Source: Methylobacterium sp.
GTDB taxonomy: Bacteria > Pseudomonadota > Alphaproteobacteria > Rhizobiales > Beijerinckiaceae
Assembly: GCA_044227265.1 (NCBI GenBank)
Contig: JBGAFL010000004.1
Span: forward strand, 28,368-92,367
DNA length: 64,000 nt
Direction: 5' to 3'
How positions within the stretch are numbered: position 1 is the first letter of the stretch; each line of letters begins with the position of its first letter. A program made the position numbers and the translations under genes. This document shows, in pieces, positions 12,814 to 30,692 of this stretch. The notes below the pieces were generated by a model. The model saw only the letters and a program-made list of their open reading frames with translations. It was not told where the DNA came from and searched no databases.

Positions 12814-14408
12814 GAGGTCAGCGACAGGTAGCGCGTCGGCGCGACGTTGCGCAGGTTCATCTCCACGCCCTGCAGGCGAGGCGAGACGAGGCCCTTCGAG
12901 CGGCTATGCAGCAGGGGGATCCAGGGCAGGTCGGCGAGCGCGATCGATTCCGCCTCGAACAGCAGGTCGGCGCGCCGCGCGACATCACGCTCGGCGGCTG
13001 CCGCCGCGAGCAAGCCGTCGAAATGCGCGTTGGAATAGCGCCCGGCATTGAAGCCGTCATTGCCGGTGCCGAGCAGGAACAGGAAATTCTGCGGATCGGA
13101 ATAATCGGCGAACCACGATATCCGCGCCAGATCGAAGCTGCCCCCGTCGCGCAGATAGGCGAAATGCGTCTTGGCATCTGTGTTGACGAACCGCGTCTCG
13201 ACCCCGATCCCGCGCCACATATCGGCGAGCGCAATCGCGGTGTTGCGGTTGTTGTCGGTGATGTTGAAGCGGTATTCGACCCTGAGCGGGTTGCCCGTCC
13301 CGAACCCGGCCTCCGTCAGGAGCGCGCGCGCCTGATCCTCACGATCGATTGGGAGATCCTCGCGGCCCGGAAGTTCCGGCGGCGCGCGATAATTGTCGAG
13401 CCCCTGCGGACAGAGCGAATAGGCGGGGGATTGGGTCTCGCCCCAGACGATTTCGGCGAGAAATTCCCGGTCGAGCGCCATGGAGAGGGCCCGGCGCACC
13501 CGGACGTCGTCGAACGGCGCCTTGCGCAGATTGATCGCGATCGCGGTCAGGCCGAGCGCCGGGCCGAGCCGGATTTGCGGGCCGAAACGCTGGCGCAAGG
13601 AGCGCATCTGATCGGCCGGCAGGTCGGATAGGGAATCAATCTCGCCGGCCGCGTAGCGCCGCACGGCGGCCGAGAGATCCGGCGTCGGGATGAAGGCGAC
13701 GGTCTCGATCGGGATCGTCGCTTCATCCCGGAAATGCGGGTTTTTTCGCAACGTGATGCGATCGTTCGGAATCACATCGACGAGCTGATAAGGGCCGTTC
13801 GAGACGAGATTGCCCGGCCGGGTGAAGGCATCGCCGAACTTCGCGATCGAGGGCGGATGCACCGGCAGCGCGGTCTGGTGAGTCAGGAGTTCGAGGAGAT
13901 AGGGCACCGGAGATTCGAGCCGGATGACCAATGTCTGCGGGTCCAGGGCCTCGACGCCGAGCGCCTCCGGAGGCGCCTCGCCGCGATTGACCGCGCGCGC
14001 ATTGCGGATCGGATAGAGCACCTCGGCATATTTCGCCGCCGTCTGGGGCGCGAGGATGCGGCGGAGCGCAAAGCGGAAATCCTGCGCCGACACCACGTCC
14101 CCATTCGACCAGCGGGCATCGGGCCGAAGGGTGAAGCTGTAGGTCAGCCGATCCTGCGAAATCTCCCAACGCGCCGCAGCGCCGGGAATGATACGCCCGA
14201 AATTGTCGTAGGTGAGCAGGCCCTCGTAGAGATCGCGCAGGATATGCGCTTCGGCGACCGTCGAGGAGCGATGCGGATCGAGCGTCTCGGGATCGGCGTC
14301 GTTGCCGCGCCGGTAGAAGCTTGTATCCGCAACGGCCTCGCCGACGAAGCAGGATGCCGCGGCCGCCGCAGCCCCAGCAAGATAACTTCGTCGGCTAATC
14401 GATGTCAT
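12810..14408 (-). CDS. oppA: Oligopeptide ABC transporter substrate-binding protein (OppA-like), Tat-like leader
   Basis: SRRSYL leader, DPETLDP, YEGL, LVSNGPY and WFADYSDP. The ATG at 14408 is preferred over the longer ORF start. Confidence 0.93.
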   Translation of the reverse strand: MTSISRRSYLAGAAAAAASCFVGEAVADTSFYRRGNDADPETLDPHRSSTVAEAHILRDLYEGLLTYDNFGRIIPGAAARWEISQDRLTYSFTLRPDARWSNGDVVSAQDFRFALRRILAPQTAAKYAEVLYPIRNARAVNRGEAPPEALGVEALDPQTLVIRLESPVPYLLELLTHQTALPVHPPSIAKFGDAFTRPGNLVSNGPYQLVDVIPNDRITLRKNPHFRDEATIPIETVAFIPTPDLSAAVRRYAAGEIDSLSDLPADQMRSLRQRFGPQIRLGPALGLTAIAINLRKAPFDDVRVRRALSMALDREFLAEIVWGETQSPAYSLCPQGLDNYRAPPELPGREDLPIDREDQARALLTEAGFGTGNPLRVEYRFNITDNNRNTAIALADMWRGIGVETRFVNTDAKTHFAYLRDGGSFDLARISWFADYSDPQNFLFLLGTGNDGFNAGRYSNAHFDGLLAAAAAERDVARRADLLFEAESIALADLPWIPLLHSRSKGLVSPRLQGVEMNLRNVAPTRYLSLTS

Positions 14409-14415
14409 TAGCCGG

Positions 14416-14853
14416 TCATGCACCGGTCTCCGCAATGAGGCCTGCCGCCTCGATGCCGGCGACCGCACAGATCTCGTCGTTGTCGGACGTATCGCCGGAG
14501 ATCCCGACAGCTCCGAGCAGGGCCCCGTCGCGATCCCGGATCAGCACGCCGCCCGGCACCGGTACCAGCGCATCCGGCCCGACGACATGGCTGACGGCCG
14601 AGACGAAATAGGCCTGCTCCTCGGCGCGCTTGGCGATGGCCCGCGAGCCGATGCCGAGCGCAAGGGCCCCGTTCGCCTTGCCCCTGGCGATCTCGCCTCG
14701 CCGCAACGAGGTGCCGTCTTCCGCCGCCAGACATTTGAGCGCACCGCGTGCATCGTAGACGACGACGCAGAGCGGTTTGAGGTTGCGTGTGCGGGCTGTC
14801 TCCAGAGCGACGGAGACCAGGGTCTGCGCGGCGGCAAGGGTCAGGTTAGCCAT
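14416..14853 (-). CDS. GlcG/HbpS-family heme-binding protein
   Basis: VVVYDARG, AR.KA, PGGVLIR and GAVGISGDTSDNDE. Confidence 0.9.
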   Translation of the reverse strand: MANLTLAAAQTLVSVALETARTRNLKPLCVVVYDARGALKCLAAEDGTSLRRGEIARGKANGALALGIGSRAIAKRAEEQAYFVSAVSHVVGPDALVPVPGGVLIRDRDGALLGAVGISGDTSDNDEICAVAGIEAAGLIAETGA

Positions 14854-15255
14854 ATCTGCGGCTCGTGAGTTCCAATGATCGCCAAGGTGTCCGTACCCTG
14901 CGTTGATCGACACGCTTCCTCACCGTGTTGCCACCGTCAAGGGCGGGATCGGACGATCATCTTCACGCAGCACGGACCGCGGCCAATTGCGTTCGAATAT
15001 GGAACCGCCTTCGGAGGTCGCTGCGGACGATGGCCGATTTGGTCGTCGAACGAAGGCACTCGCCAGCTTCGGACCAGATCCGATTTTCGATCTGAAGCAA
15101 GAACGCACCTTAAGCTGAAAACTCGACGGTTGTCGTCAAAAGATAAGCTCGCCTACAGGCTTCCGAGCCGGCAGGACAACCTTAGAGAAACACCTTAGCC
15201 TTCCATTGGCCGCCTCACCTGCAACCGGAGATAGGTGCAATCTCGTGAGGGGATC

Positions 15256-15573
15256 ATGCTTGGCCAAACGCTTGCGCGTACGCTCGTCACAACGAGCGAT
15301 CGCCGAAATGTTCTGTTGGCCTTCGGGCTTGTCGTGTTGATGGCCGCCATCCGCTTCGGCGTCTGCGACATGGGCGCGGCTGCCGGCGCAAGTTGGGATG
15401 TATTCAGTCTACAGGAAGCTCTTGCCGCGCTGCTGAGCTTGGGTTCGATAGCAGCGAGCCTATTTTATTTCTTTGTAGGAAACGAGCTGCGCCTTGGCAT
15501 GATCATCGCGATGCCAGAAATTTTCCTACTTTTATGGCTTGGCAATCTTCAAATACAATTTTTGACATTCTAA
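15256..15573 (+). CDS. Small membrane hypothetical protein
   Basis: 105 aa with three hydrophobic segments and a GAGGGG RBS-like sequence upstream. Confidence 0.5.
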   Translation: MLGQTLARTLVTTSDRRNVLLAFGLVVLMAAIRFGVCDMGAAAGASWDVFSLQEALAALLSLGSIAASLFYFFVGNELRLGMIIAMPEIFLLLWLGNLQIQFLTF

Positions 15574-16511
15574 TTTTTCTGAAAATCAAGAATTATTCTA
15601 TAACTGATCGGCATCGATCGACGTATTGATCGGATTTGATTGGTTGGCATATTTCAAGCGTATATTGGCTAAGCTACCTAATTGTTCACGGGATTTGGCA
15701 TGGCGACGCTTGAGGTGGTCGGCGGCCGTTGGGTCATGGCCTGCCAAACCCCGTGAGTAATTACGTTGCGGGCGGCTGCTGCGCCCGGCGGTCGTGCAGA
15801 GGAAAGTGACCACCGGCGACCGCGCGATGTGGGCCGCACGACGCGGGCCGATATCCACACCGGCGTCGACACCGCACGCCTCAACGGCGGACCTGCGTTC
15901 GGAACCATTCTCAAGACCGTCGGCGCCTGAAACACCCATTGCAGAGGTGGGTAATTACCCGATAACAATACACCATCACACAGTGAGACTGAACTGCTAG
16001 ACAACCTCACGATCTAAACGAAAGAATTGCAGTCATGGCGAAACCGTAGTTAATTAAAATCCTTACTCAGTGTGTACATAAAGTTTTCAACCTTATTTCT
16101 GTAGAAGAATCGACTTACTCAATTGCGAAATTTTAATATTTGACCAAATAGACCGTGAAAGAAGCAAATTGAGAATTTGCAAGAAGGTTGGAACCAACTC
16201 CGAGTGATCTTTGATCCAGCGTTATACGATCAGGGAAGCGTAGAACAAGAATGGACAAATCTTTGCAGCAATGGAAGATTTTAGCTCTGCAGATTCGGCA
16301 GCTCGCACGCACCCAACCAGCCAGCCAGCCAACCGGTACAGGAATTAATTCCTATCATATTTCCTGGCACGCAACAAATGTTACCTTTGAGCAACATTCC
16401 GCCAGCAATGGCCTTAGGAGCCGAGCGGAGCGCGAATTCGCGGATTGTAATTTTGCGCCAGGTGGAGGGATAGTACAAGCTTAGCCATAACGAGAAGAAA
16501 GGGCCAAACCG

Positions 16512-17765
16512 ATGACCAGCAAACTGAGGCTGCGTGCTGCCGTTGCCGCTTGCGCCATTCTCGCCTCAGGCTATGCCTCTGCAGCAGATGCACCACCGAT
16601 TGCCGCACCAGCCCCGGTTGCCGACAATTGCAACGCTTCGATTTCCTTCCCGTCCTATGGCGGTGTGATCAAAGCCAATCCGGACCCATATTGCGTCGGG
16701 TCACCGGTCGGCGACATCTATGTGGGCGGCGCCCTCAGCGGTTACGCCTATCACTACAGCAAGCCACTGCCGTCCATTTACACGCCCGCCGTCCCGGGTA
16801 TTGATAACGATCGCAGCGGGCGCGTCGACGTTTTGAACGCGTTGGCAGTGATCCAGAAGGCCGATGGACCGTTCCAGTTCGTTGCGATAGCCGGACTCTA
16901 TGCGGTGCCCGTGCTCGGCCTGCCGACCTTCTCGTCCGTTGACCAGACTGACCTGCTCTACGGGCCGGTTCCGGTTGCTTTCGGCAAATGGCAGATCAGT
17001 GACGAATGGTCTGTCCAGGGCGGCCGCATGATGACGCTGATCGGCTCCGAGTCGATGTTCAGCTTCCAAAGACTGAACATTACTGGCGGCCTGCTGTACA
17101 ATCAGGAAAACCTGATCAACCAGGGTGTCCAGGTGAACTATGCGAGTGGACCTTGGGCGGTCTCATTCGCCGCGACCGACGGCGCCTTCTCGGGCGAGAT
17201 CAACTGGGTCACCGGCTCGATCAGCTACAAGCTCGACGATACAAGCGCGATCGGCGTCAATGGCGGCACGCATTTCAGCAGTTTCAATTCGGCATTGCGG
17301 AGCCCGCATTTTCAGTATGCGACGCCGCTCACGGTTCAGAACAGCAGTATCATCAGCGCGAACTATACTTACGCCAACGGCCCTTGGATCATCACGCCGT
17401 GGATCCAATATACGAATGTTGAAAGGAACGCGGCGTTCGGCCTGGCCGGTGCAGAAACCTTTGGCGCTGCCCTGCTTGCCAGCTACAGCTTCAACGACAA
17501 CTTCCATCTTGCCGGCCGTGGCGAATATATCGAGCAAAGCGGCAGTAAGACGAACCCGCTCGGCCAGACTTCGGTGCTGTATGGCGCGGGCAGTTCGGCC
17601 TATTCGCTGACAATCACGCCGACCTTTACCTGGGATCGGTATTTCCTGCGCGGCGAGTTCTCGCACGTACAGTTGACGAACTTTCAACCGGGGCTCGGAT
17701 TCGGCCGCTTCGGCACGGCGGGCCAGCAACAGCGCTACATGCTGGAGACAGGCATAACCTTCTGA
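16512..17765 (+). CDS. Outer-membrane beta-barrel protein / putative porin (OmpL-like BBP2 type)
   Basis: Signal peptide, alternating amphipathic strands and C-terminal Phe (RYMLETGITF). Confidence 0.8.
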   Translation: MTSKLRLRAAVAACAILASGYASAADAPPIAAPAPVADNCNASISFPSYGGVIKANPDPYCVGSPVGDIYVGGALSGYAYHYSKPLPSIYTPAVPGIDNDRSGRVDVLNALAVIQKADGPFQFVAIAGLYAVPVLGLPTFSSVDQTDLLYGPVPVAFGKWQISDEWSVQGGRMMTLIGSESMFSFQRLNITGGLLYNQENLINQGVQVNYASGPWAVSFAATDGAFSGEINWVTGSISYKLDDTSAIGVNGGTHFSSFNSALRSPHFQYATPLTVQNSSIISANYTYANGPWIITPWIQYTNVERNAAFGLAGAETFGAALLASYSFNDNFHLAGRGEYIEQSGSKTNPLGQTSVLYGAGSSAYSLTITPTFTWDRYFLRGEFSHVQLTNFQPGLGFGRFGTAGQQQRYMLETGITF

Positions 17766-18045
17766 TTCATACGAAATCCGATTGATTGCTTCGCAAGCGG
17801 ATTTCACTTTGCTCAATCGCCGCACGGGCTTGGTGATACGGTTTCCGACTGATTCAGTCGGAAACCGTATCAGTAGAAAGATCGAACCTTCCGAGCCACG
17901 CAGATCGATCTTTCAGAAGGAATGGGCGCGTCCGACATTCGTCCCTTTCGGCGCCGAAATGCGCCTAAAGCCCGGAACCAAACCAACTCAGCCGGATAAG
18001 GAATTGCTCGCTCACCGACCTCACGCCGACCTCTGCGCAAGGTCT

Positions 18046-19344
18046 TCAACAATCGAGATAAGCGTCGCGCTCCCATTGCGTCAGGTGCGCGCAGTATCGA
18101 TCCCATTCATCAAACTTCAAGTGTAGGTATCTGAATACCAGCGCCCCCAATGCATCGTTCAAGACCGAATTGCATTCCAAAGCGCGCAAAGCATCGAGCA
18201 AATTCGACGGTAGTTTCTTGTTAGCCTGAAATCCGGTTTCGATCGCATTCGCGTCGAAGTCGGAGCGCTTGCCCGGATCCCGTTGCTGTCGGATACCATC
18301 GAGTCCCGCAGCTAGGATGCTGGCCTGCAGCAGGTACGGATTGGCCGCTCCGTCGGGGAGCCGAAACTCGATGCGCCCCGGTGCGGGCACACGGATCATG
18401 TGCGTTCGATTGTTGCCCGAATAGGAGACCATGTTCGGCGACCAACTCGCGCCGGACTGTGTCCGCGTCGCATTGATCCGCTTGTAGGAATTCACAGTCG
18501 GGTTCGTGATAGCTGTCAGCGCATCGGCGGAATAGATTAAGCCGCCAATGAAGTGATAGCCGAGCCTCGACAGGCCCTGCGGGTCGGACGGATCCTCGAA
18601 CAGATTTCGACCCTCTTGCCAAAGGGAGACATGGACGTGGCATCCCGACCCGGTCAGCTCCGGGAACGGCTTGGGCATGAAAGTCGCGCGTAAGCCGTGC
18701 TTTTCAGCAATCGACTGCGTCATGAACTTGAAGAATGTGTGCCGGTCAGCGGTCACGAGAGCGTCACCAAAGGTCCAATTCAGCTCGAATTGGCCGTTCG
18801 CATCCTCGTGGTCGTTCTGATAGGGCTTCCATCCGAGCGCCTGCATCGCATTGCAGATCTCGGCAATCACGTCGTAACGACGCATGAGCGCCAGCTGGTC
18901 GTATCCTGATTTCGTCCGATTATCGGCCTTGTCGGCCAATTCGGTCCCGGCTTCCGTGACGAGAAAGAATTCCGGCTCGACACCGGTCATCATCTGAAAA
19001 CCATCCCGCTCGGCTTGAGCGATGACGCGCTTCAGGACGTTGCGCGGTCCTTGTGCCAGGGGTTTTCCGCCGACCTGGAGGTCGCAAGGCAGCCAACCGA
19101 CTTGCCGCAGCCAGGGAAGCCGCATCAACCCCGGCGGGTCCGGCATGGCAACAAGGTCTGGGTCCGCCGGACTCATGTCGAGCCAAGTGGCGAAACCCGC
19201 GAAGCCGCTGCCATTGGCGACGCAATCGCGGATGGCGTCAGCCGGAATGAGCTTGGCGCGCTGAACTCCGAGCAGATCGATATACGACGCTAGAAAGTAT
19301 TTAATTTCGCCATTCTTCAGAACCTGTTCGAGATCGTCGATCAT
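18046..19344 (-). CDS. gmaS: GlnT-type glutamine synthetase-family enzyme, gamma-glutamylmethylamide synthetase (GmaS)-like
   Basis: KYFLASYIDLLGVQRAKLIP, GSGFAGFATW, GVEPEFF, YQNDHEDANGQFE, TFMPKPF, NSYKR, WSPN and NRTHMIRVP; ends QWERDAYLDC. Confidence 0.82.
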   Translation of the reverse strand: MIDDLEQVLKNGEIKYFLASYIDLLGVQRAKLIPADAIRDCVANGSGFAGFATWLDMSPADPDLVAMPDPPGLMRLPWLRQVGWLPCDLQVGGKPLAQGPRNVLKRVIAQAERDGFQMMTGVEPEFFLVTEAGTELADKADNRTKSGYDQLALMRRYDVIAEICNAMQALGWKPYQNDHEDANGQFELNWTFGDALVTADRHTFFKFMTQSIAEKHGLRATFMPKPFPELTGSGCHVHVSLWQEGRNLFEDPSDPQGLSRLGYHFIGGLIYSADALTAITNPTVNSYKRINATRTQSGASWSPNMVSYSGNNRTHMIRVPAPGRIEFRLPDGAANPYLLQASILAAGLDGIRQQRDPGKRSDFDANAIETGFQANKKLPSNLLDALRALECNSVLNDALGALVFRYLHLKFDEWDRYCAHLTQWERDAYLDC

Positions 19345-19790
19345 TTTCGGTCATCCAGGGCATCGGTCGTTGCCGCTTCGGTCGATCGAGAACTCGATTT
19401 CTTCAAGAGGCCAGCCTGCGGCGGGCGCGGTGCGGCCGGCCATGACGTGCCGGCTCGGGAAACAGGACCGGCCACGAGGAGAAGCGCGGCGCGGCGCTCT
19501 CCGCTCGCAAGCAGAGCATGACACTACAACGAGAAAGATTATGTCCGGCAGTCATTCGAGCAAGAGCTGTTATTTCGAAGGTCGATGTTCGCGCCACATC
19601 GAAGCATGGCGAAATAATGCTGTCGGACTGATTGACCATAGGATGAGGGCCTCGCGGCCCGATTCCATCCAGACGGATCGCTCTGAGGCCCGCCGTCAGC
19701 CCGCGAAGGCTTACGAGGAATTGGTCGGCCACGCAAAACGAGAGGGCCGCGAACGGCGATGGCCGGCCGTCGTCGTGATTGAGCGAGAGC

Positions 19791-20663
19791 TCAGGCTTGA
19801 AGGGTTGGCTCGCGATGCAGCCGGGTTTTCAAGTCGAACACGTCGACTGGGCAGGCATCGATGCAGCTGCCGCAATTCACGCAATCGCCGGACAGGATCA
19901 GAGTCGTTCCCTTCCCCTTCAGGGCGGGGACGATAACATGCGGCTCGGTGCAGACATTGAAGCAGGCGCCGCAATTGGTGCAGTCATGCCGCCGCGTTGC
20001 CGCGACGCGGGTCAAGCTGGCCTTGCCGATGATGCCGTAGAAGGCACCGACCGGGCAGAGATGGCTGCACCAGCCGCGCCGCGTCACCAGCAAGTCGAGC
20101 AGAAACACAGCGAGAATGACCGCCCAGCCCGCTCCGAGGCCGAAGATCAGGCCGCGCTGCAGGATGCTGACCGGATTCACGAACTCCCAAGCGACCGTTC
20201 CGGTGGCGAACGAGGCGAGGAAGGCGCCGCCAAGCACCCACCATCGAGTCCGGCGATCGAGCATGCGGTCACGTGTGATGCCGAGCTTGCCCCTCAGCCA
20301 ATAAGCCGTGTCCGTGACGATATTGACCGGACAGATCCAGCCACAATAGGCACGCCCGCCGACAGCCAAGTAGAACAAGGTGATCAGGCCGGCGCCGAGC
20401 ACGGCGACTGAGGCCGGTGCGAAACCCGCGGCAACCGATTGAAGGAAGACGAAAGGGTCGGCGAAGGGCACGGTGCCCAGCAACTCGCTCGAGGCGAAAT
20501 TGCCGCGCATGATCCAAAGCCCGAACAGCGGGCCGGACATGAACGCGGCCAAGGCCGTGAGCTGCGAAGCACGCCGCAGCAGCCACCATTTGTGCGCGCG
20601 CAACCAGCCCTTCGCGGCAACCGCTTCGAGACGTGCATCGGCGGTCAGCGCGGAGATGATCAT
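19791..20663 (-). CDS. mauN: MauN, membrane polyferredoxin (NapH family)
   Basis: CGWICPVN, WCSHLCPVG and two CxxCxxCxxxC(P) clusters. The ATG overlaps the mauM stop codon. Confidence 0.9.
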   Translation of the reverse strand: MIISALTADARLEAVAAKGWLRAHKWWLLRRASQLTALAAFMSGPLFGLWIMRGNFASSELLGTVPFADPFVFLQSVAAGFAPASVAVLGAGLITLFYLAVGGRAYCGWICPVNIVTDTAYWLRGKLGITRDRMLDRRTRWWVLGGAFLASFATGTVAWEFVNPVSILQRGLIFGLGAGWAVILAVFLLDLLVTRRGWCSHLCPVGAFYGIIGKASLTRVAATRRHDCTNCGACFNVCTEPHVIVPALKGKGTTLILSGDCVNCGSCIDACPVDVFDLKTRLHREPTLQA

Positions 20664-21322
20664 GCCAGCCTCCCGGCCGGATTGCGACCGTGACCGCCAA
20701 GCCCGAGTTCGCGCGGGAGCACCCGGATCGACGCTTGATCGGTGACACAGTGCTTCTCGCAGGTTCCGCAGCCGGTACAGTGTTCCGAATGGACGACCGG
20801 GATCACCATCCGGCGCCCCTTGATCGTCTGGATTTCGAGCGTGATGGCTTCGTCGCGGATCGGGCAAACCCGGTGACAGATGCTGCAGGTCATGCCCTTG
20901 TAGTTCAGGCAGGTCTCGTGGCCGACGAGGACGGCGACGCCCATATCGGCGTCGCGAATGCTGGGAATGTCGCGATCGAGCGCGCCGGTCGGGCAGGCCT
21001 TCGCACAGGGGACATCGACACACATGTAACAGGGGGTTTCGCGCGCGACGAAGAAGGGCGTGCCGAGCGGAGCGTCCTCCGCAAGCGTCGCGAGTCGGAG
21101 CGTGTCGAAGGGACATGCCCGTACGCAAAGCCCGCAGCGCACGCAGGCCGACAAAAACGCGTCCTCCGGCAACGCACCCGGTGGACGCAATGCCTTCGCT
21201 TCTGCCTTTCGCGTCGAATCCACGTAGGCGGTGAGCGACAACCCTGCGAGACAGGCAACGCCGCCTGCCTTGGTGGCGTTGGCGAGAACCTCGCGGCGCG
21301 TAGGTTTCTTCGCATGTGCCAT
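20660..21322 (-). CDS. mauM: MauM, periplasmic 4Fe-4S ferredoxin (MauM/NapG family)
   Basis: Tat motif TRREVL, LRPPGA, CVRCGLCVRACP and further Cys clusters. Confidence 0.92.
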   Translation of the reverse strand: MAHAKKPTRREVLANATKAGGVACLAGLSLTAYVDSTRKAEAKALRPPGALPEDAFLSACVRCGLCVRACPFDTLRLATLAEDAPLGTPFFVARETPCYMCVDVPCAKACPTGALDRDIPSIRDADMGVAVLVGHETCLNYKGMTCSICHRVCPIRDEAITLEIQTIKGRRMVIPVVHSEHCTGCGTCEKHCVTDQASIRVLPRELGLGGHGRNPAGRLA

Positions 21323-21347
21323 GAGGACGTTTCCCTCTTTTCCCCTC

Positions 21348-21716
21348 CTAATTCAGTTTCTTCTCAATCACATCGAACTCCATGTGAATGATCGGGTGAA
21401 TCCAGCAGCGGACTATAACATGACCTGCCTTCTTCATCACGGTGGATTTTTGAGTGCCGGGGGGTTGGGTATTGAGCGTTTCGACCGTTCCATCTTCGAA
21501 AGTAAGGTAGAGATTGTGAGCGATGTCAGCATGGTTCGAGAAGACCACGGTGTCACCGACCGCAGGCTCGGCGCCCGTCTCATGCGCCTCGAGATGCTCG
21601 ATCACGATCTCGACCGTTGCGGCACGTGCCAGCGGCACTGGGGCGATGGCGAGTGCAAGCATGGCAAAAGCAGTGCCTAGAGCGAACGAACGGCCCATTC
21701 GAAGATCCATCCTCAT
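21348..21716 (-). CDS. mauL: Small exported cupredoxin-fold protein at the mauL position
   Basis: Signal peptide, GDTVVFSN, AHN and CWIHPIIHM; located between mauG and mauM. Confidence 0.65.
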   Translation of the reverse strand: MRMDLRMGRSFALGTAFAMLALAIAPVPLARAATVEIVIEHLEAHETGAEPAVGDTVVFSNHADIAHNLYLTFEDGTVETLNTQPPGTQKSTVMKKAGHVIVRCWIHPIIHMEFDVIEKKLN

Positions 21717-22795
21717 GGCAGCACCGGCAGCGAGACCGGCATCGGCTCGGCGGCGAGCGTTTCCAGGAAGGCAACGAGGTCTCGGCGCTCACGTTCGCTG
21801 AGTTCGACAGACTTCATCTCGAAGGACAGGCTCGGCCGCTTCTCACCGCCCTTCGCGTAATGCTCGATCACCGCATCGATCGTGTGCAACTGGCCGTCAT
21901 GCATGTACGGACCTTGCAGCCGCAGATCCCGAAGCGACGGCGTCTTGAAGGCGTTCTGCATGGCGACGACGCTTGGCGGCGCGAACTTGCCGCGGCCAAG
22001 ATCTTCGCTCGCTTTCAATCCGATGTCGTGAAAGCTGTCGTCGCTGAAGCGCCAGGAGGAGTGGCAGGCCGAGCAGTGCGCCTTGCCGGTGAACAGCGCG
22101 AAGCCGCGCTTTGCCTCGGAGCCGATCGCCGAATCCTCGCCCTCAACCCATCGGTCGAACGGCGACTTTCCCGAGACGAGCGTGCGCTGAAAGGTCGCGA
22201 GCGCTGCGGTGACGTTCTTCTGGTTGATCGGATCCTCACCGCCGAAGGCCGCCTGGAAAAGCGGCGCATAGCCCGGAACGGCTTTTAGTCTCTCGACGAC
22301 GAGATCCATCGTCATATTCATCTCGTCCGGCGCAGTGATCGGCATTTTCGCTTGCGCCTCCAGTGAGGGCGCGCGCCCGTCCCACTGGAACGCCGCGCCC
22401 CAAGCCATGTTGCGCACGTGCGGGGTCCTCCGCGCCAGCGGCGCCATGCCGAACCCGACCGCCTTGGCCAATCCGTCCGACCAGCCGAAGCTCGGGTTGT
22501 GGCAGGTGCCGCAGGACATGCTGCCGGAGCGCGACAGCCGCGGATCGAAGAACAGGGCCTTCCCGAGTTGCTCTTTCTCCAGCGAATGCGGATTCGATCT
22601 AGGAAAAGGAATGCCCTCTGGTCGGCGGAATTTCTGCTTCAGCCCCGCGAGATCGGCGGCCGAAAGCCCCTCGATCGCATTGTTATCATTGGTCGCGTCG
22701 CCGGGGCCGATCACGACCCCATAGGAGAGGCAGCCGACGGCAACGAACCAAGCGATGAGAGTACGTGTCCCGAGAATGGGTTCCAACATTTTCAC
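21713..22795 (-). CDS. mauG: MauG, di-heme TTQ biosynthesis enzyme
   Basis: LGKALFFDPRLS, two CxxCH motifs (CGTCH, CSACH), QWDGRA and FKTPSLR; located in the mau operon. Confidence 0.93.
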   Translation of the reverse strand: MKMLEPILGTRTLIAWFVAVGCLSYGVVIGPGDATNDNNAIEGLSAADLAGLKQKFRRPEGIPFPRSNPHSLEKEQLGKALFFDPRLSRSGSMSCGTCHNPSFGWSDGLAKAVGFGMAPLARRTPHVRNMAWGAAFQWDGRAPSLEAQAKMPITAPDEMNMTMDLVVERLKAVPGYAPLFQAAFGGEDPINQKNVTAALATFQRTLVSGKSPFDRWVEGEDSAIGSEAKRGFALFTGKAHCSACHSSWRFSDDSFHDIGLKASEDLGRGKFAPPSVVAMQNAFKTPSLRDLRLQGPYMHDGQLHTIDAVIEHYAKGGEKRPSLSFEMKSVELSERERRDLVAFLETLAAEPMPVSLPVLP

Positions 22796-22821
22796 CTTGT
22801 CGGTCGAAAGAGCGCTCTCCC

Positions 22822-23712
22822 TCAGGAAGCGACCGCCATGTCCGCAGCTTGCCGGTCGGCGATCTCGAGCAGCAGCACTTCGCGCGCAGCGTAATCGGCA
22901 AGGCTCGCCATCGGCGCGAGCCGCGCCGACGCGTTCGTCTCGCCGGCATCGACCGAGTGGAATCCGGGGGCTTCGAGCTCCCGCAACGTTTCGTTCCGCA
23001 CCTTTTCGAGTGTTTCGATGAGGACTGCGAACGGTTGATTTTCAAGTTCCCGCGCAGAGGTCAGCGCCCCGCTATGGACAAGCATGTCCAGGCGCACCGT
23101 CCGCATCGCCTGGTGCGGGCCACGCGAGAACGGCGGGCTGCCCTCGCGCCAGAGCTTCAGCACCGCGAAGGCGTTCAGCAGCCGCCAAGCCGAATCTGAG
23201 GCGTTGCGGGCACGCTGGTAGAGCCGGAACACGGGCTTCATGTCGTCGGGGACGAACGCCACCGTCTCGAGGTCGAGATCGAGCGCACTCGGCCGGAACG
23301 GCAGGCAGCGCCAGCGCGCATCGTTTGCCGGATCGGCGAGGCGCCAACCTGCGATCGCCATGCCGCGGCCGAGTTGCAGCGTCCAACGGGCGAGACGGTC
23401 ATCGAGGTCACGTCGGCTGGCAGCCAAAGCCGCGAACGGATCGCGACACGTGAGCCGATAGATGATCTCGTTGAGCTTGCCGGCCTCATTGCCGTAGAAG
23501 GCGATGATGGCCGGCATGCCCTCGATCGTCTCGTTCAGGACATCACCCAACGCATTGGCGCGGATGTCGATTTCCCAGGCCAGCGTAATCGGATTCCTCA
23601 CAAAGAAGCCGACCATGACGTTGCGCTCGGATCGATCGGCCTTCGATGCCTCGATGGACGATGCCGGCGTCTCGGCCTTGATCGACTCCCTCAAATCATA
23701 TGGAATCCACAT
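22822..23712 (-). CDS. mauJ: Methylamine utilization protein MauJ
   Basis: MWIPYDLR N-terminus recalled for MauJ; located between amicyanin and mauG. Confidence 0.82.
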   Translation of the reverse strand: MWIPYDLRESIKAETPASSIEASKADRSERNVMVGFFVRNPITLAWEIDIRANALGDVLNETIEGMPAIIAFYGNEAGKLNEIIYRLTCRDPFAALAASRRDLDDRLARWTLQLGRGMAIAGWRLADPANDARWRCLPFRPSALDLDLETVAFVPDDMKPVFRLYQRARNASDSAWRLLNAFAVLKLWREGSPPFSRGPHQAMRTVRLDMLVHSGALTSARELENQPFAVLIETLEKVRNETLRELEAPGFHSVDAGETNASARLAPMASLADYAAREVLLLEIADRQAADMAVAS

Positions 23713-23737
23713 CGGTTTGACCTCGGTCTCGTGACGG

Positions 23738-24094
23738 CTATTCCACCGTGACCTTGCCCTTCATGAAGGGGTGCGGGGTGCAGACGTAATTGTAGGTTCC
23801 GGGTGTGTTGAACTTGACGGAATAGGTCTCGTTGGAGCGCAACATCGGACCTTCGACGTCCTTCTCGAGCCCAGCACCGGCCTTGAAATGCACGTTGTGC
23901 GGCAAGGGCTCGGTGTTGATCCAGGTCACGGTCGAGCCGCTCTTCACGGTCACGTCCGGTGTCTGGAACTTCATCTTGGCGATTTTGATCTCGGTGCCTC
24001 CGGACGCGCCGGTCACGACCTCGATCGCGTCGGCGGCCAATACGGGCCCGAGGGGGGCGACGACGAGCGCCGCCGCGAGCAGGATGGAACGCAT
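23738..24094 (-). CDS. mauC: Amicyanin (type-1 blue copper electron acceptor of MADH)
   Basis: Signal peptide, PHNVHF and YVCTPHPFM (His, Cys, His, Met ligands). Confidence 0.95.
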   Translation of the reverse strand: MRSILLAAALVVAPLGPVLAADAIEVVTGASGGTEIKIAKMKFQTPDVTVKSGSTVTWINTEPLPHNVHFKAGAGLEKDVEGPMLRSNETYSVKFNTPGTYNYVCTPHPFMKGKVTVE

Positions 24095-24195
24095 GAGAGA
24101 TTCTCCGAGTAAGGGCGCGCGAGCCGGCGATCAGGCGAAAGGCTGGTATTCCGTCCGCGACTTGACTGACGGGATACGTCTCACGTGTTCTTCGG

Positions 24196-24225
24196 CGTCA
24201 TGGCCGGGACAGCCCGGCCATGACG
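24196..24225. terminator. Perfect 13-bp-stem hairpin between mauA and mauC
   Basis: CGTCATGGCCGGG-ACAG-CCCGGCCATGACG. Confidence 0.6.
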
Positions 24226-24260
24226 GTGGAAGCCGACGCGACACTTGGTGGCTGACGGAG

Positions 24261-24818
24261 CTAGGCCTTCCCTATGATCGGGGAGATCGTGCAGTGATAG
24301 GTCATGGCGTCGTCTTCGGCGCCGAAGCACCAGATGACGTCATTGCCGAATTCGGGACGGTAGACCGGCAGCTCACCTTCCGTGTTCAGGCAGCCGCAGC
24401 GGTTCGACATGTTCCGGCCGCAGCAATCCCGGTACGAGATCAGATAGCTCTGCTTGTCGGTCGGGTTGTAGCAGCTCGCGACCCAAGAGCTCGAGGCGAG
24501 CTTGGTGCCGGGCGGGCAATTGGTGAGTGAGCCGCCTGCGCAATCGCAGATGTTGCCGTCGATCGAGCAGTGCCGCCAGTAATCGCAGGCCTGGATGTCG
24601 TTGTCCTGCGGGGCCCACTTGGCACGTGGATCGCCGGCGGCCGAGGCGGCATTGGCGCGGCTGACGCGGCCACGCCGGTCGACCGGCAGGAGCGGCACCA
24701 GGGCCACGCCCGCTACCGCGGTACCCACGCGGCCTATGAAGCCGCGGCGGCTGGTATGTCCTGCCACCTTGCGTGACAGCTTTTCGAACATCTCGTCGAA
24801 ATGGGATTTGCCGAGCAT
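24261..24818 (-). CDS. mauA: Methylamine dehydrogenase light (TTQ) chain
   Basis: Tat leader SRRGFIG, CDYWRHCSIDG, YRDCCG and NDVIWCFG (both TTQ Trp residues present). Confidence 0.98.
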   Translation of the reverse strand: MLGKSHFDEMFEKLSRKVAGHTSRRGFIGRVGTAVAGVALVPLLPVDRRGRVSRANAASAAGDPRAKWAPQDNDIQACDYWRHCSIDGNICDCAGGSLTNCPPGTKLASSSWVASCYNPTDKQSYLISYRDCCGRNMSNRCGCLNTEGELPVYRPEFGNDVIWCFGAEDDAMTYHCTISPIIGKA

Positions 24819-24876
24819 CTTATACCCCATCGTTTATTGGGTTGCGTGAGTGTGGAGGGACCTGGCGGCGCCGCTT

Positions 24877-25494
24877 TCAGGCGGCGATTGCGCCCTGGTC
24901 CTTTTTCCGGCTGGTCATGAACTGCTGGATGGAGGCGAAGCCGCTCTTGTCCGCCTCGAGGAGGCTTTCGAGATGCTCGCGGGTATTGGTCAGGCCCTTG
25001 GAACGGATCACCCCGTCCGAATCCAGGAAGACGCCGTAGGGGATCTTGCCGACCTGGAATTTCATGCCGACCTCGGCCGAGACGACGTAGCGGATGTCGC
25101 CGAGTTCGTGTTTGGCGAGGAAGCGCTCGTGCTCGTCGGGCTGGCCGTCGCTGATCATCACGACCGAGACCTTCTCGGCTTTGGAGATCGACTTGATCAG
25201 CGGAAACAGCTTGTCGCAGACCGGGCAGCTCGGTGCCGTGAACATCAGCAGCGTTGCCCGTTTCTGGGGATTCGGCCCGCCGATGCGCAGGTTCGCCCCG
25301 AAATGATCGGGAATGTCGAAGCTCGGGGCGAGATCGCCGATCTCCGGCCCGTGATCGGTGATCATCGCGCCCATCGGCGAGGAACGCTCGTGCAGCAGGC
25401 CGACCTGACGAAGGACACCGAGCATGACGACGGTGACGCCGATCAGGGCCAACCAGAGCAATACGTTGGATGCAATGAGGAATTGCGTCGCCAT
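24877..25494 (-). CDS. mauD: MauD, thioredoxin-like MADH accessory protein
   Basis: N-terminal TM, LLHERSSPMGAM, CPVC and VGKIPY; 205 aa. Confidence 0.95.
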   Translation of the reverse strand: MATQFLIASNVLLWLALIGVTVVMLGVLRQVGLLHERSSPMGAMITDHGPEIGDLAPSFDIPDHFGANLRIGGPNPQKRATLLMFTAPSCPVCDKLFPLIKSISKAEKVSVVMISDGQPDEHERFLAKHELGDIRYVVSAEVGMKFQVGKIPYGVFLDSDGVIRSKGLTNTREHLESLLEADKSGFASIQQFMTSRKKDQGAIAA

Positions 25495-25499
25495 CGGCG

Positions 25500-26084
25500 T
25501 CATCCTTTCGAATACTGGGCCTGGTTGGAACGAACGGCGTTCTGCAGACCCGTGAGCAGTGACGCGCTGACGTAAAGGAGCATCGCGAGAGCGGCCGCCG
25601 CGACGCCAAGTCCGAACTCGAGCGGTTCCGCCGCACGGGCCATCGGAGCCGCCCAGGCGGCACCGAGAGCGAAGAGGGCGAGCGCCGCATTGCGAGCCAC
25701 AAGCAGCCAGCTCAGCGGCTGCTTCATGCCGTTGCGCAGGCAGCCGCAATCGATCGCCGTCCGACCACGCCAGACATTGACGCCGATCGCGATCCCGAAA
25801 ACGGCCAGCAATCCGGCTGCCGCGAGCGCGGCATGGGGTGCGAGCATCGGGATCAGGAGCCCTGCGGCCACCGCGAGTTCCACGAAGGGAAGCGCGGCGG
25901 CGATGGGAGCCGCCAGCCACTCCGGCGTCAGCCGGAAGTTCCGGACGACGCCGAAGAACTCTTCCCGGTGCATGAGCTTCGAGACCGCGGCGGTCGCGAA
26001 GAGCAGCGCCAGGAACGACCTGAGAAAGGTCGAGACGAGCGGTTCGGCCAGGATCGACTCAGCCAGATACGACATGGCGATCAC
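25500..26084 (-). CDS. mauE: MauE membrane protein
   Basis: Hydrophobic protein with AIDCGC and ARNAAL; lies between mauB and mauD. Confidence 0.93.
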
Positions 26085-27313
26085 ATGTCCGAGGTAGTGA
26101 TGACCTGCGGGCCACGACCGAGCTGATCGACCGAGCCGGTCTCCTTGCCGGATTCCGGATCGAAGATGTGCAGCGTGCGCGTGCCGGTCGAGAGCGCGTA
26201 GAGCTGGGGCTTGGCATCCTGGCTGACGCCGACCGAGTCGATCTCATGCTTGAGCTCGAGCTTCTGCAGGCGCTTGCCGGTCTTGGCGTCGATCACCAAG
26301 GCGAAGCGGCTGGGCGTCTTGTGCTTCGATGTCGCGCGCTGGTCGACAAGCAGGTAGATGCGATCGCTGTCGCGATGATAGGCGACCTGCTGCCAACCGC
26401 CCGGCGCCCAGCCGTCCTTCTTCTCCTCATCAGTGAGAGCTTCGATCGCAGGGAGGAACTTGGCATCCGCCCCCGAGAGATCAATCTGGAAGATCTTGCC
26501 GGTATAGGTCGGCCAAACCAGGCGCTTATTCTTGGTCGAATAGGCCGGATGGTTGATGACGTACTCGTTCTCCTTATGGAAAACCTCGGTCTTCTTGATC
26601 TCGTCCTTGCCGCCAGCGCCCATGGTGACCTTGGCCAGGCTGCCGTCTCGGCAATGCATGTAGAAGGTTTGGTCGGACGCCGGGAAGATGTGATAGCAAT
26701 CTGGTGCCTTGATCATGCGGTCGAACTTCTTGCCGGCGAGGTCGACGACGCCGACCGCTGGCGAAGGCGAGAATTGGTAGAACAACAGCGTCTTGTTGTT
26801 CGGGGTAAGCGCCGTCATCCACGGATAGGTGCCGACTAGGAAGCGCGGGTTGTTGGGGAGCGCGATATCGGCGGTCGGCTCGGTGGTGATCGGATCGAAG
26901 ACCTCGACATAGTCGGTGCGCTTGCCGCGGGAGACCCTATCCCAGACCGTGCTCGCCTGAGCGAAGAACGAGCCGTCACTTGCGACCACCGGGTTGGTCA
27001 TGAAGCCGCCATCGACCATGCTGATCACGCGGGCCTTGTCGCCGTCGAGGACGTATTGCTGCGAGACCGAGGCGAAATGCGCAGGATCGTAAACGTAGAC
27101 GCGGCGGGCGTTGGGAGCGGGCGCCTTGAGGACGACGGGATCATCCTCCTTGCCCGCGGCCAGGTTGTCCGCTGCCTCCTTGGCGGCAGCCGCGCCTTGT
27201 TGCGCAATCGCGGCGGGAACATTCGCGAAAAGGGCCACCAAAGCAGCCGCTCCGATTAGAGAGGAGCCGTAGCGGAGCGCTTGGCGGACATGGCTTCGGT
27301 CGTGCATCATCAT
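26081..27313 (-). CDS. mauB: Methylamine dehydrogenase heavy chain
   Basis: Signal peptide, [36 protein letters not shown] and WAPGGWQQ (beta-propeller). Confidence 0.97.
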
Positions 27314-27377
27314 TTCCTCCTCGAGGCGGCGGAATTCAGCGGATAACGAAGGGTGAAGGTGAAGCTGGGCTGACGGC

Positions 27378-28235
27378 CTAGAATGCCGCCAGCACGAGCA
27401 GAGCTGTGCCTGCTGCGACCAGCAAGGCCCCGTCGACGGTGGCGGCGCTCTCCTGCCGGCGGGCGAGCCAATCCTGGACGTCGATGTCGCTGACCGGCAG
27501 GTAGTTCACGAGCATCGGCAAGAAGCGGCCGGCATTGAAGGCGAGGAACAAAGCGATGGCGAACCCGACATGCCCACTCAAGGCTGCCGCGCCCGTCACC
27601 AGATAGAGGATCGGAGTCTGAACGTAGGTCAGATAGTTGAGTCCGAGCGAGAACCCGTAGAGGCCGCCGATCATCCACACGGGGAAGCGCTGACGTGCAT
27701 CATGCGGCACCTGGGCACGACGCTGCGGATAGGGCACGCGTACGAAGCCGAGCTGGTGCGCGCCGTAGACCACACCGATCAGTCCGAGGACGAGTAACGC
27801 TCCGACCGACAGTCCGGAGAGCCCGACGAGCGATCCAGCGAGCCCGAGTATCCCACCCAGGGTCAGCGCGCCGGCGAGATAGCCGACGCCATGGAGCAGC
27901 AGAGCCGGCGTATAGCCAACTACGGACCGCCATGAATAATGACCGACCGGGCGCAACAGGCACAGGCTGGAATAGCCGCAGGGCGACCAGGTCGACAGCA
28001 AGCCACCGGCGAAACCGAGGCCGAGCAGCAGGGAAGGCACGATGTCGGCCCGTCCGACATGGCTCAAGGCCAGAGACGCTCCCGCAGCGCCGGTCACGGC
28101 TGCGGTGACAACAACACCGATGCGAACCGCGCGCGACGTCTCCTGCGGAAAGGTGACGCAATCCGCAACTCCCTCACCCATTCCTTGAGCGAGCGACACG
28201 ACTTCTCGTTCGCTGGACGGCGCCAACGTGGCCAT
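27378..28235 (-). CDS. mauF: MauF membrane protein
   Basis: [26 protein letters not shown] and [11 protein letters not shown]; first gene of the cluster. Confidence 0.93.
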
Positions 28236-28602
28236 GCCCTTCCTCCCATTTTTTTTCGAGCCTGCGGCGCCAGCGTCGGCGGCGCAGTTCGAATCCGTCT
28301 TGCCGTTTCCCTAAAGGAACATATTTTTCGTTTCAAGAGGATTATTGCGGCAGCGTCAGGCAACATGCGTACAAAATAGGCAGACATTGCGCGCCAGTGC
28401 AGCACATGAGACCGGCAATCCCTTCGACAGATCGCTGCTCTGACGATGCGTTTCGGGATTTTGCAGATGCCAGAATCGTGCTTGTGGATCGCTTGACGGC
28501 GCCGCGTACCGGTCGAGCCGCGCGATCTCCAGCCTGCGTGAGATTCGCCCGACCAGAGCACCGATCATCTCGGATCGATGGCCACGTTCTGGCGGACAAC
28601 AC

Positions 28603-28881
28603 ATGATTTGGGCGACAAGGAACGTTCATCGAGACGATCTGCGCTCGATCAAGCTTCTGTTTCGCGAGCAAGTCGAAGCGTTAGATCCCGGGCGGCAAAT
28701 GCTTCTCGTCGGCATCCATGCAGACTGGCAGATCACTCAGGCCTGGGTTGGCGTGGTCGAATACGACTTGCTGACACCCTATATCGGCTTCACGCACTGC
28801 ACCCGCAACAAGCTGCCAACTGCGCCGATCTTGATTGCTGGAAATCTGAAACGTTTTGGCGAAGTCTTCCACACTCGCTGA
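28603..28881 (+). CDS. Hypothetical protein divergent from mauF
   Basis: 92-aa ORF with normal globular composition (MIWATRNVHRDDLRSIKLLFREQ...); no recognised motif. Confidence 0.45.
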   Translation: MIWATRNVHRDDLRSIKLLFREQVEALDPGRQMLLVGIHADWQITQAWVGVVEYDLLTPYIGFTHCTRNKLPTAPILIAGNLKRFGEVFHTR

Positions 28882-28917
28882 TAAGCAAGCTTCAACGCTT
28901 TCGCGCGTTTTAATATT

Positions 28918-29532
28918 CTATCTTTGATAGACAATGATTGAAAGATAAGTCATCGGTGTCTTGATGAGATTGGCAGGTCCGTGAAGCGCGGACGAATCAA
29001 ACATCAGCGAGTCGCCTGGCGCAAGATGATAATAATTTCCTGCATGCGCATAGATCAGTTCGCCCGTCAGCATATAGATGAACTCGACACCGGTGTGTCG
29101 AAAACTCGTGTATGGCTCGGCTCCGACTTCAAGTTTGATCAGATACGGCTCGACGACGATTTCGCCGCGGATGCCCGCGCCGAGCAACTGGTAAATGTGT
29201 CCCGCTTTGGTGCCACGGCGTTCGATCACCACGCCCTGGTCTTTCTTCACATGAGAGCAGTCACGTCGCTCTTCGAATGTTGCGAATAGAGACGAAATTG
29301 GAACATGCAACGCGTTCGCAATTGCATTCAGGGTCGCGAGCGAGGGCGAAATGGCACCATTTTCGATCTTCGATATCATTCCAGACGAAATGCCGGCAGC
29401 AAGACCAAGATCTGATATCGACAGATCGTGCTCGCGCCTTAAATTTCTGACTTGATGACCAATGGCTTGCTCAAGAGAACGCTGCTCCACAACCGGAGCA
29501 TTGGATGCAGTATTCAGCATGTGACTTTGCAA
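28918..29532 (-). CDS. XRE-family HTH + cupin transcriptional regulator
   Basis: IGHQVRNLRR..ISSGMISKIENGAISPSL, IERRGTKAGH, FRHTGVEFIYML and GDSLMFD...HGP. Confidence 0.92.
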   Translation of the reverse strand: MQSHMLNTASNAPVVEQRSLEQAIGHQVRNLRREHDLSISDLGLAAGISSGMISKIENGAISPSLATLNAIANALHVPISSLFATFEERRDCSHVKKDQGVVIERRGTKAGHIYQLLGAGIRGEIVVEPYLIKLEVGAEPYTSFRHTGVEFIYMLTGELIYAHAGNYYHLAPGDSLMFDSSALHGPANLIKTPMTYLSIIVYQR

Positions 29533-29924
29533 AGTTTGGCGTGAGATTTCAGCGCCATTGCGCTGTTCGGCAAACTGCTCGATTCAGGATTTGGGGGAGA
29601 CGCGTCGATGATGAGCGCGTCAGGCTCCCATTGCAAGGCCACTCGGCGTCTGCTCGATGCGGCAGCATGCCTCGGTTTCAGGGTAATTTTCAATCTGGCC
29701 AAATATCTCTGGTAAAAATTTCGGCGGCTCAAGTGTGAAACCGCGACCGCTTCAGCAGCCCTGTCTGCCCCGTTCGGCGCTGGGGACGTGAGGCTTTCCT
29801 GAAAGAATCGTCACCCGTGATGGGCAGAGCTCAACTAAATCGTGAAATTTAGTTTGCTCGAATCGTGATGTACCTTTGGATGCCCATTCCACACTTGCAA
29901 TCTCGGGGGTTCAAAGGTTCTGCT

Positions 29925-30290
29925 TGGCTCTGACAATCCGGTATACGCTCGCGGGCTGATCTTGAGGCGGCGAGCGACATCAGGGTGTCGGATGCCATCG
30001 GCCAGCGTCGCCTTCACCTCCCCTGGATCAATGGACGGCAGACGCCCTTTATGGTTGCCGGCGACTTGGGCCCTGGCGATGCCTTTCCATCTGGCGTTCG
30101 CGACGCAGATTGGTTTCGAATTCGGCGAAGACACCGAGCATGTCGAGGAAGGTTTTGCCTGCGGCAGCGCGAGTGTCGATCGGCTGTTCGGTCGCCTTGA
30201 GCGCGGAGCCCGTGGCTTTGAGCGTTCGAACGATGTCCCGCATGGTCGCCGATCGAGCGGGCGAGACGATCGATGCGAGCAGGAGCCCAT
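29925..30290 (-). pseudogene. Serine recombinase (resolvase/invertase) remnant, N-terminally truncated and frameshifted
   Basis: RIDRLARSIG, DIVRTLK, EQPIDTRAAAGKTFLDMLGVFAEFETNLRRERQME and, in another frame, GIARAQ..KGR..HTH. Confidence 0.85.
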
Positions 30291-30449
30291 GAGCGGCATG
30301 GTCGAGTTCGAGGGCGGCATCGGCCTCGCGCCGCGGCGTGCGCGTCGAGGGTGGATTGTTGCCACAGCCCTAGGTGCAGGCTCAGCCAACCTGTGGTTGC
30401 TAGAGTGTTCGCCCTGAGGGAGCGATCCAGCGCAACTTGTTAGAAAGAT

Positions 30450-30525
<76 letters not shown>

Positions 30526-30692
30526 CCCTCGTCCGGCCGTCGCAGCCTTGGGCTTGCGGCGGGAAGGGCGGCCCGCAATACGGGGTGGGCGGCGCAGGGT
30601 CAACACAGGCTCGCGATGCCGAGGGTCGCCAATTGTGTCCTGCCCCGGCGCCCGCCCTCGCTTGGACATGTCGAGCTGACATCGGAAGGCTC

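Follow-up and report, generated by a model that had tools for sequence, protein, structure and literature searches.

Here, we identified a gmaS-like gene that is located outside any N-methylglutamate (NMG) pathway in a genome of Methylobacterium sp. The gene (18046..19344, minus strand) lies in a stretch of 64,000 nucleotides (the whole stretch analysed, hereafter the window) and encodes a protein of 432 aa, which is the sole member of the GmaS/type III glutamine synthetase (GS) family in this genome. It has evolved fast and is now under purifying selection. Directly upstream of it, on the same strand, is the methylamine dehydrogenase cluster mauFBEDACJGLMN (11 genes; 19791..28235, minus strand). 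The explanation that we favor with moderate confidence, based on sequence comparison, is that the gene is a relic ligase of an NMG operon whose synthase genes were replaced by mau, and that its product is likely still a glutamate-alkylamine ligase with an ancillary role, which may be one in signalling.

A gmaS-like gene outside the N-methylglutamate pathway

The open reading frame (ORF) at 18046-19344 starts with ATG and contains 432 residues and zero internal stops. Its product (the query) matched the profile TIGR03105 (type III glutamate-ammonia ligase, including GlnT and GmaS) with 629 bits (cut-off 469.6), which bears out the GmaS/GlnT membership proposed in a first-pass annotation of this DNA, and the GS catalytic domain (PF00120) is present. 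The protein scored below the cut-offs for glutamine synthetase type I (GSI; TIGR00653, 295.7 bits, cut-off 429.15) and for gamma-glutamylputrescine synthetase. The closest solved relative is the GmaS of Rhodovulum sp. 12E13 (RhGmaS; 7CQL), which was matched over the full length (562 bits, ~66% identity), followed by a second and distant glutamate-methylamine ligase (9QUR); each of these is ~40% or more identical to the query. The host genome (4.87 Mb, 113 contigs, 100% complete) contains one TIGR03105-level gene and one GlnA. The gene had been described as a paralog, a term that has to be abandoned since no second gene of this level is present and both the phylogenetic tree and the flanking regulator shared with relatives (see below) point to the ordinary gmaS of the genus. 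Two regularities of the family are lacking, namely the K-P/S-C-Y-D signature and the linkage to mgsABC.

The ordinary arrangement is represented by M. mesophilicum, in which an XRE-cupin regulator, mgsA, mgsB, mgsC and gmaS follow each other on one strand. Among the 75 fetched loci, 72 have mgsC beside gmaS, and four same-genus genomes have MgsC (93-95% identical) encoded beside gmaS with SoxD nearby. Searches of the query's own genome with MgsA, MgsB and MgsC revealed only distant paralogues (GltB paralogue, 32% identity) and no orthologue. Neither the SoxD-type subunit (PF04267), which is present in all four of these same-genus genomes, nor mgd-type dehydrogenase genes were found in this 100% complete genome. 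In addition, no remnants of mgsABC were detected at 14400-30600 by tblastn with the relatives' proteins (E up to 0.01), and only the regulator and gmaS were matched. Thus, mgsABC is not adjacent to gmaS, a four-subunit sarcosine-oxidase-like dehydrogenase is not found, and the gmaS-like gene is outside any NMG pathway in this genome.

An XRE-cupin regulator gene (HTH_3 and Cupin_2; 28918..29532, minus strand) is located upstream of mauF on the same strand. Its orthologues, 71-77% identical, are found within 10 kb of gmaS in Methylobacterium, and matches were observed in 56 GmaS loci overall. Between this regulator and gmaS, MauB, MauA, MauD, amicyanin, MauG, MauM and MauN are encoded in order, the profiles TIGR02658, TIGR02659, TIGR02661, TIGR02657, TIGR00397 and TIGR02163 scored above their cut-offs, and PF03150 was also matched. 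The mau proteins could be matched gene by gene to five same-genus mau loci, with 57-91% identity in four of them; the fifth is rearranged and more distant. Transfer of mau clusters in Methylobacterium, with entry at unrelated sites, has been reported previously (PMC5023228). In our comparison, mau genes were absent from all 80 GmaS loci elsewhere, the regulator and gmaS were absent from the five other same-genus mau loci, and no mau cluster inside an NMG operon with an orphan gmaS was present among these 80 and five loci. These observations are most simply explained by a replacement of mgsABC by the mau cluster between the regulator and gmaS, together with a loss of the unlinked dehydrogenase genes.

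The spacer between mauN and gmaS (19345..19790) is 446 nt long and non-coding. The same layout of mauN, spacer and gmaS was found beside a second allele, which comes from a second strain or sample. The only ORF in the spacer (19403-19732, minus strand, 109 codons) is not a gene because it is broken by a 1-nt indel next to the second allele. An Rfam scan of 14300-20000 returned zero matches, and a promoter and terminator scan of 17600-20000 returned nothing above the shuffled expectation. The breakpoints of the replacement are not locatable since the spacers showed no DNA similarity to the loci of relatives.

Altered motifs, active site and divergence

To describe the motifs of this protein, 194 relatives were compared, comprising 119 other proteins among the top database matches and 75 GmaS from other species' genomes (59-70% identical). 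It had been noticed from the sequence that the query reads KSGYDQ and DFDAN where GmaS has KPCYDQ and DIDMY, and that the Trp of WxPN is kept. Residue alignment to 7CQL confirmed this, placing KSGYDQ opposite KPCYDQ, DFDAN opposite DIDMY and WSPN opposite WSPN. The first motif (K145-S-G-Y-D-Q150; 18895..18912, minus strand) contains Tyr148, which corresponds to the pocket Tyr147 of RhGmaS, and Ser146-Gly147 replace the Pro-Cys of the family. KPCYDQ is present in all 119 database proteins, and the 75 genome-derived GmaS have KPCYDQ (66), KSCYDQ (6) or KPCYDE (3), so that the Cys of K[PS]CYD was found in 194 of 194 relatives, a signature to which the KSGYD of the query does not conform. SGYD could have proved common in bona fide GmaS, and it was found in none of the 194. 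Outside the query, KSGYDQ was only observed in a 99%-identical allele on a 2-kb contig of one public run; in a library of 50% representatives, whose matches were mostly fragments and distant GS-like proteins and told little about motif frequency, a few distant members have Gly or Ser at the Cys position. The second motif (D362-F-D-A-N366; 18247..18261, minus strand) replaces the family D-x-[DN]-M-Y, which is present in 67 of the 75 genome relatives and whose M-Y is invariant across all 75 when aligned. The flap Trp (W301-S-P-N; 18433..18444, minus strand; Trp300 in RhGmaS) is kept, and the adjoining Thr has become Ser (T300S). Both quoted motifs are altered at otherwise conserved positions and, judged from these counts, the departures are beyond chance drift.

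In the alignment with the query's own GlnA, the invariant Tyr of the family motif D-I-N-M-Y falls exactly on that of D-K-D-L-Y-D-L-P-P, which is the adenylylation site (Tyr397) of GSI. DFDAN had been regarded as a part of the amine pocket, but this was not borne out as it aligns with the adenylylation loop of GS and holds none of the pocket residues named for RhGmaS. In contrast, the first motif does hold the methylamine-pocket Tyr (Tyr147 in RhGmaS; PMC7948447). The same structural study assigned no role to Cys146 or the Tyr of DIDMY, and described a methylamine pocket of Tyr147, Gln175, Asp177, Glu179, Glu186, Asn188 and Lys30', with Arg312, Asp177 and Glu186 in catalysis (PMC7948447).

The active site is intact. 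All of the 24 published residues for ATP, Mg, glutamate and methylamine/catalysis are kept, one of them as Tyr191->Phe, a variant also present in 10 of the 75 relatives. Arg312, Asp177, Glu186, Tyr147, Gln175, Glu179, Asn188 and Lys30' (RhGmaS numbering) do not differ between the query and any of the 75 relatives, and the hallmarks of GmaS, Ala49 in place of Asp50' of GS and Trp301 in place of the flap Glu, are also retained. Beyond these residues, 13 near-invariant columns (≥97% conserved in the 75 relatives) are changed in the query (A9L, A46S, M91V, V96L, K119M, C147G, M188L, T300S, M365A, Y366N, G369E, L380S and T429Y), compared with a median of 1 and a next highest value of 7 in the relatives; in eight of these columns, all 75 relatives have the same residue. 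Five changes are 1-4 residues from active-site residues: A46S is near the equivalent of the Asp50' loop, K119M is near Glu123, C147G adjoins Tyr148, M188L is flanked by the catalytic Glu187 and the pocket Asn189, and T300S adjoins Trp301. Divergence is concentrated in residues 1-36, 73-144 and, above all, 361-396, where half of the genus-invariant positions are changed, as opposed to only 4% in the catalytic core segments 217-288 and 325-360. The altered regions thus mainly correspond to the N-terminal domain and the loop equivalent to the GS adenylylation loop.

One hypothesis for these changes, close to that proposed in the first-pass annotation, is that second-shell substitutions around the pocket have retuned the ligase to another amine, such as ethylamine or a larger alkylamine. 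C147G, seen in none of the 194 relatives, is situated beside the pocket Tyr, and M188L, T300S and A46S would also be suitably placed. The Pro-Cys dipeptide looks tied to the substrate class because it is present before the Tyr in both solved GmaS, including the distant 9QUR, while canonical GS has Gly-Gly-Tyr (K-G-G-Y in the query's own GlnA). Moreover, RhGmaS already accepts ethylamine and propylamine (PMC7948447). However, the seven named pocket residues are unchanged, most of the divergence is away from the pocket, and the neighbours are methylamine-specific (the mau cluster and the NMG-type regulator), with no other amine-catabolic gene adjacent. A shift in specificity is therefore possible but rather unlikely on the present sequence comparison.

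The phylogeny with GmaS/GlnT that had been suggested for this protein placed it inside the Methylobacterium/Methylorubrum GmaS clade, whose organisms belong to the same genus as the source genome, on a very long branch. In the 76-row tree, this position had a support of 99 by the SH-like approximate likelihood ratio test (SH-aLRT), and the 36-row tree gave a support of 97/96. The end branch of the query is 1.0-1.1 substitutions per site, more than 10 times longer than those of its neighbours (tree median 0.07-0.12; most of the clade at most 0.08). Where two genus members have TrpE-like proteins of 74-80% identity, their GmaS are 84-92% identical, whereas the query's own TrpE-like protein is 71-78% identical to those of genus relatives and its GmaS only 68-69%. 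The gene has accumulated 3-4 times more amino-acid changes than species divergence predicts. The divergence of the regulator (71-77%) is in line with that of the species, and GmaS alone is an outlier. Divergence of the whole genome as the cause of the 70% identity was rejected by these TrpE-like and regulator controls. A mosaic structure or gene conversion as the source of the divergent C-terminal part was also rejected, as each sliding window of 60 residues is closest, or tied, to the genus clade. The GC content at third codon positions (GC3) of the gene is 0.70, compared with 0.88-0.98 for the gmaS of relatives and 0.76-0.87 for most neighbouring genes (the porin and mauL genes are lower).

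These features could also be explained if the whole block of regulator, mau and gmaS had been imported from an unsampled relative, in which case the divergence would reflect a distant donor and not local acceleration. The GC3 below that of host genes and the known transfer of mau in the genus (PMC5023228) are consistent with such an event, as is the identity of MauB to its counterparts in the five other genomes of the genus that carry mau, which is only 75-77% for four of them and 60% for the last. Nevertheless, the regulator has diverged no more than the species, with GmaS as the sole outlier, and both the supported position inside the genus clade and the sliding windows argue against import. 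Furthermore, no closer relative was present among the best-matching 8,000 candidates of a large collection of 5.8 billion proteins. We consider the import unlikely.

Two known alleles of the gene differ by nine synonymous and three non-synonymous changes, giving a ratio of non-synonymous to synonymous rates (dN/dS) of 0.10 (P = 2e-4 against neutrality). Thus, the gmaS-like gene evolved fast and is now under purifying selection. This observation contradicts the simple decay of a functionless relic drifting to a pseudogene after pathway loss, which could otherwise account for the long branch, the changes at eight positions invariant in 75 of 75 relatives, the drop of GC3 to 0.70 and the absence of pathway partners. 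The intact full-length reading frame, the 24 functional residues and the few changes in the core segments also disagree with decay, which appears very improbable. Because the whole first shell is kept and purifying selection is observed, GmaS-type ligase chemistry is most likely retained. Also very improbable is a glutamine synthetase of the GlnT kind that would assimilate the ammonium set free by methylamine dehydrogenase: with Gly147, the residue in front of the pocket Tyr is again as in GS, and RhGmaS has the same kcat with NH4+, but its Km for NH4+ of 8.7 mM is ~300 times its methylamine Km (PMC7948447), the ammonium residues of GS are not restored (Ala49 and Trp301 stay as in GmaS), the TIGR00653 score is below the cut-off, and the genome has a normal GlnA including the adenylylation motif.

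Two same-genus genomes contain GmaS of another lineage (G011:C1:3111986-3113263, locus L110; G014:C15:197423-198703, locus L111). These sequences group with Aminobacter and Hyphomicrobium and are 65-69% identical to the genus type, whereas the TrpE-like proteins of the two genomes share 90-91% identity with their counterpart in G003 of the same genus, whose GmaS is of the ordinary type, indicating that gmaS has been exchanged within the genus. A second GS-like gene, ~40% identical to the query, is present in G007 (C1:2252424-2253740) and four other genus genomes and is absent from the query's own genome.

Possible role of the retained ligase and the surrounding region

According to the explanation that we favor, the ancestral order would have been XRE-cupin regulator, mgsA, mgsB, mgsC and gmaS, and the mau cluster would have taken the place of mgsABC, leaving the regulator and gmaS on its flanks. 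Freed from a high-flux catabolic role, gmaS would then have lost its codon adaptation and accumulated amino-acid changes, while the first shell for ATP, Mg, glutamate and amine was retained under purifying selection. A protein that no longer carries catabolic flux would fit both the lost codon bias and the relaxed constraints on surface and loops. The enzyme is most likely still an ATP-dependent glutamate-alkylamine ligase whose product would be gamma-glutamylmethylamide or something closely similar. It would now have an accessory role beside the periplasmic methylamine dehydrogenase, either in the synthesis of an effector for the retained regulator or in the trapping of cytoplasmic methylamine; this assignment of a role is the weakest step of the scheme.

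A candidate regulatory link was found upstream of mauF. In 39 of 64 alphaproteobacterial loci (L003-L076), mgsA is preceded at ~45-60 nt by a common element consisting of TTTC-N7-GAAA, then GTTCC, then TTGAC. A sequence resembling this mgsA operator/promoter element is located ~70-100 nt upstream of mauF (28305..28340, minus strand). Its core match (28315-28331, 80-96 nt upstream of mauF, on the right strand) is the best hit of the position weight matrix (PWM) in the window; with 19.5-20 bits it scores as true sites do and comes ninth among the 9.7 million positions of the genome, with ~0.0006 such core matches expected in the 682-nt spacer between the regulator gene and mauF. Since the motif is rich in AT and is matched only weakly over its full length, this site, and with it control of mauF from an NMG-type operator, is suggestive only. 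A likeness to the mgsA operator seen by eye ~45 nt upstream of the gmaS-like gene was dropped because it was not ranked in any PWM scan. The mgsA element also occurs in Methylorubrum loci without an XRE-cupin match within 10 kb, and one Methylorubrum locus (L004) has an AraC/DJ-1 regulator upstream of mgsA instead of the XRE-cupin gene.

Several points weigh against the scheme of replacement and retained ligase. The site upstream of mauF is only a partial match, with 10 bits for the full motif compared with at least 37 for real sites, and no ranked PWM match precedes the gmaS-like gene itself. If it served metabolism alone, the ligase would seem futile, because in the absence of the NMG synthase gamma-glutamylmethylamide lacks a known onward route here. 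The substrate may not be methylamine any more, as Pro-Cys is replaced and A46S, K119M, M188L and T300S have occurred. In addition, the low GC3 and the long branch would also fit import from an unsampled donor.

It is also possible, if doubtful, that the product of the ligase, and not methylamine, is the effector of the XRE-cupin regulator and that this regulator drives mau from the NMG-type operator. In that case, the gene may have evolved fast, and lost the conserved Tyr loop, because a high-flux enzyme turned into a low-flux sensor. A precedent is known from Ruegeria pomeroyi, whose methylated-amine regulon responds to a catabolite formed downstream of methylamine and not to methylamine itself (PMC13390433).

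Convergent with the gmaS-like gene is a gene for an OmpL-like beta-barrel porin (PF07642; 16512..17765, plus strand), which may be methylamine-linked. Another genome of the genus encodes a 59% homologue of this porin immediately next to mauN (L116, 5908-7041), and the best full-length match of the mgsA operator in the window is located at 16360-16395, 117-152 nt upstream of the porin gene. The 1.6-kb stretch between an HbpS-like gene and the porin gene (14914-16511) is low in GC (~55%), has no ORF with a Pfam match and holds several AT-rich partial operator-like matches. Within the mau cluster, the gene at the mauL position (21348-21716, minus strand) has the lowest GC3 (0.63) and encodes the mau protein with the lowest conservation (56-64% identity to its counterparts in relatives).

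Implications and comparison with known systems

The two bacterial routes of methylamine utilization, the periplasmic methylamine dehydrogenase and the cytoplasmic NMG pathway, are treated as interchangeable modules. Transfer of mau in the laboratory into a strain with only the NMG pathway gave a functional route (PMC5023228). The locus described here looks like a natural end point of such a swap, in which mau occupies the place of mgsABC and nothing of the old pathway was kept except the regulator and the first enzyme. Three questions can be asked of it: what function a GmaS has on its own, what regulates mau in a Methylobacterium with no MauR-type regulator nearby, and which GmaS residues are held in place only by the rest of the pathway, for which the Pro-Cys preceding the pocket Tyr and the M-Y loop, which is invariant in relatives, are candidates. 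It also cautions that the presence of gmaS, which serves as a marker gene for the NMG pathway, does not always imply this pathway. If the ligase product does act as the effector, the mau pathway would receive its signal from an enzyme of the unrelated pathway that it displaced.

Compared with known systems, the mau cluster has the same 11 genes in the same order as that of Methylorubrum extorquens AM1. However, the AM1 cluster lies between insertion sequence (IS) elements, apart from the NMG genes (PMC5023228), whereas here it is found between the NMG regulator and gmaS. The gmaS of Methylobacterium/Methylorubrum, including that of the M. extorquens NMG pathway (PMC5023228), fall into the same clade as the query, and the XRE-cupin regulator is common to part of the genus. 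On the other hand, the query is 68-70% identical to these proteins where genus members share 84-99.5%, its GC3 is 0.70 versus 0.88-0.98, and it is downstream of mauN and not of mgsC. With the GmaS of Rhodovulum sp. 12E13 (7CQL and five further PDB entries; PMC7948447), it has all named ATP, Mg, glutamate and methylamine residues in common, but it reads KSGYDQ for KPCYDQ and DFDAN for DIDMY. With GlnA (GSI), it shares the fold, the acyl-phosphate ligase chemistry and a Gly before the pocket Tyr, whereas Asp50' and the flap Glu are absent from the gmaS-like protein and an Asn aligns with the adenylylation Tyr.

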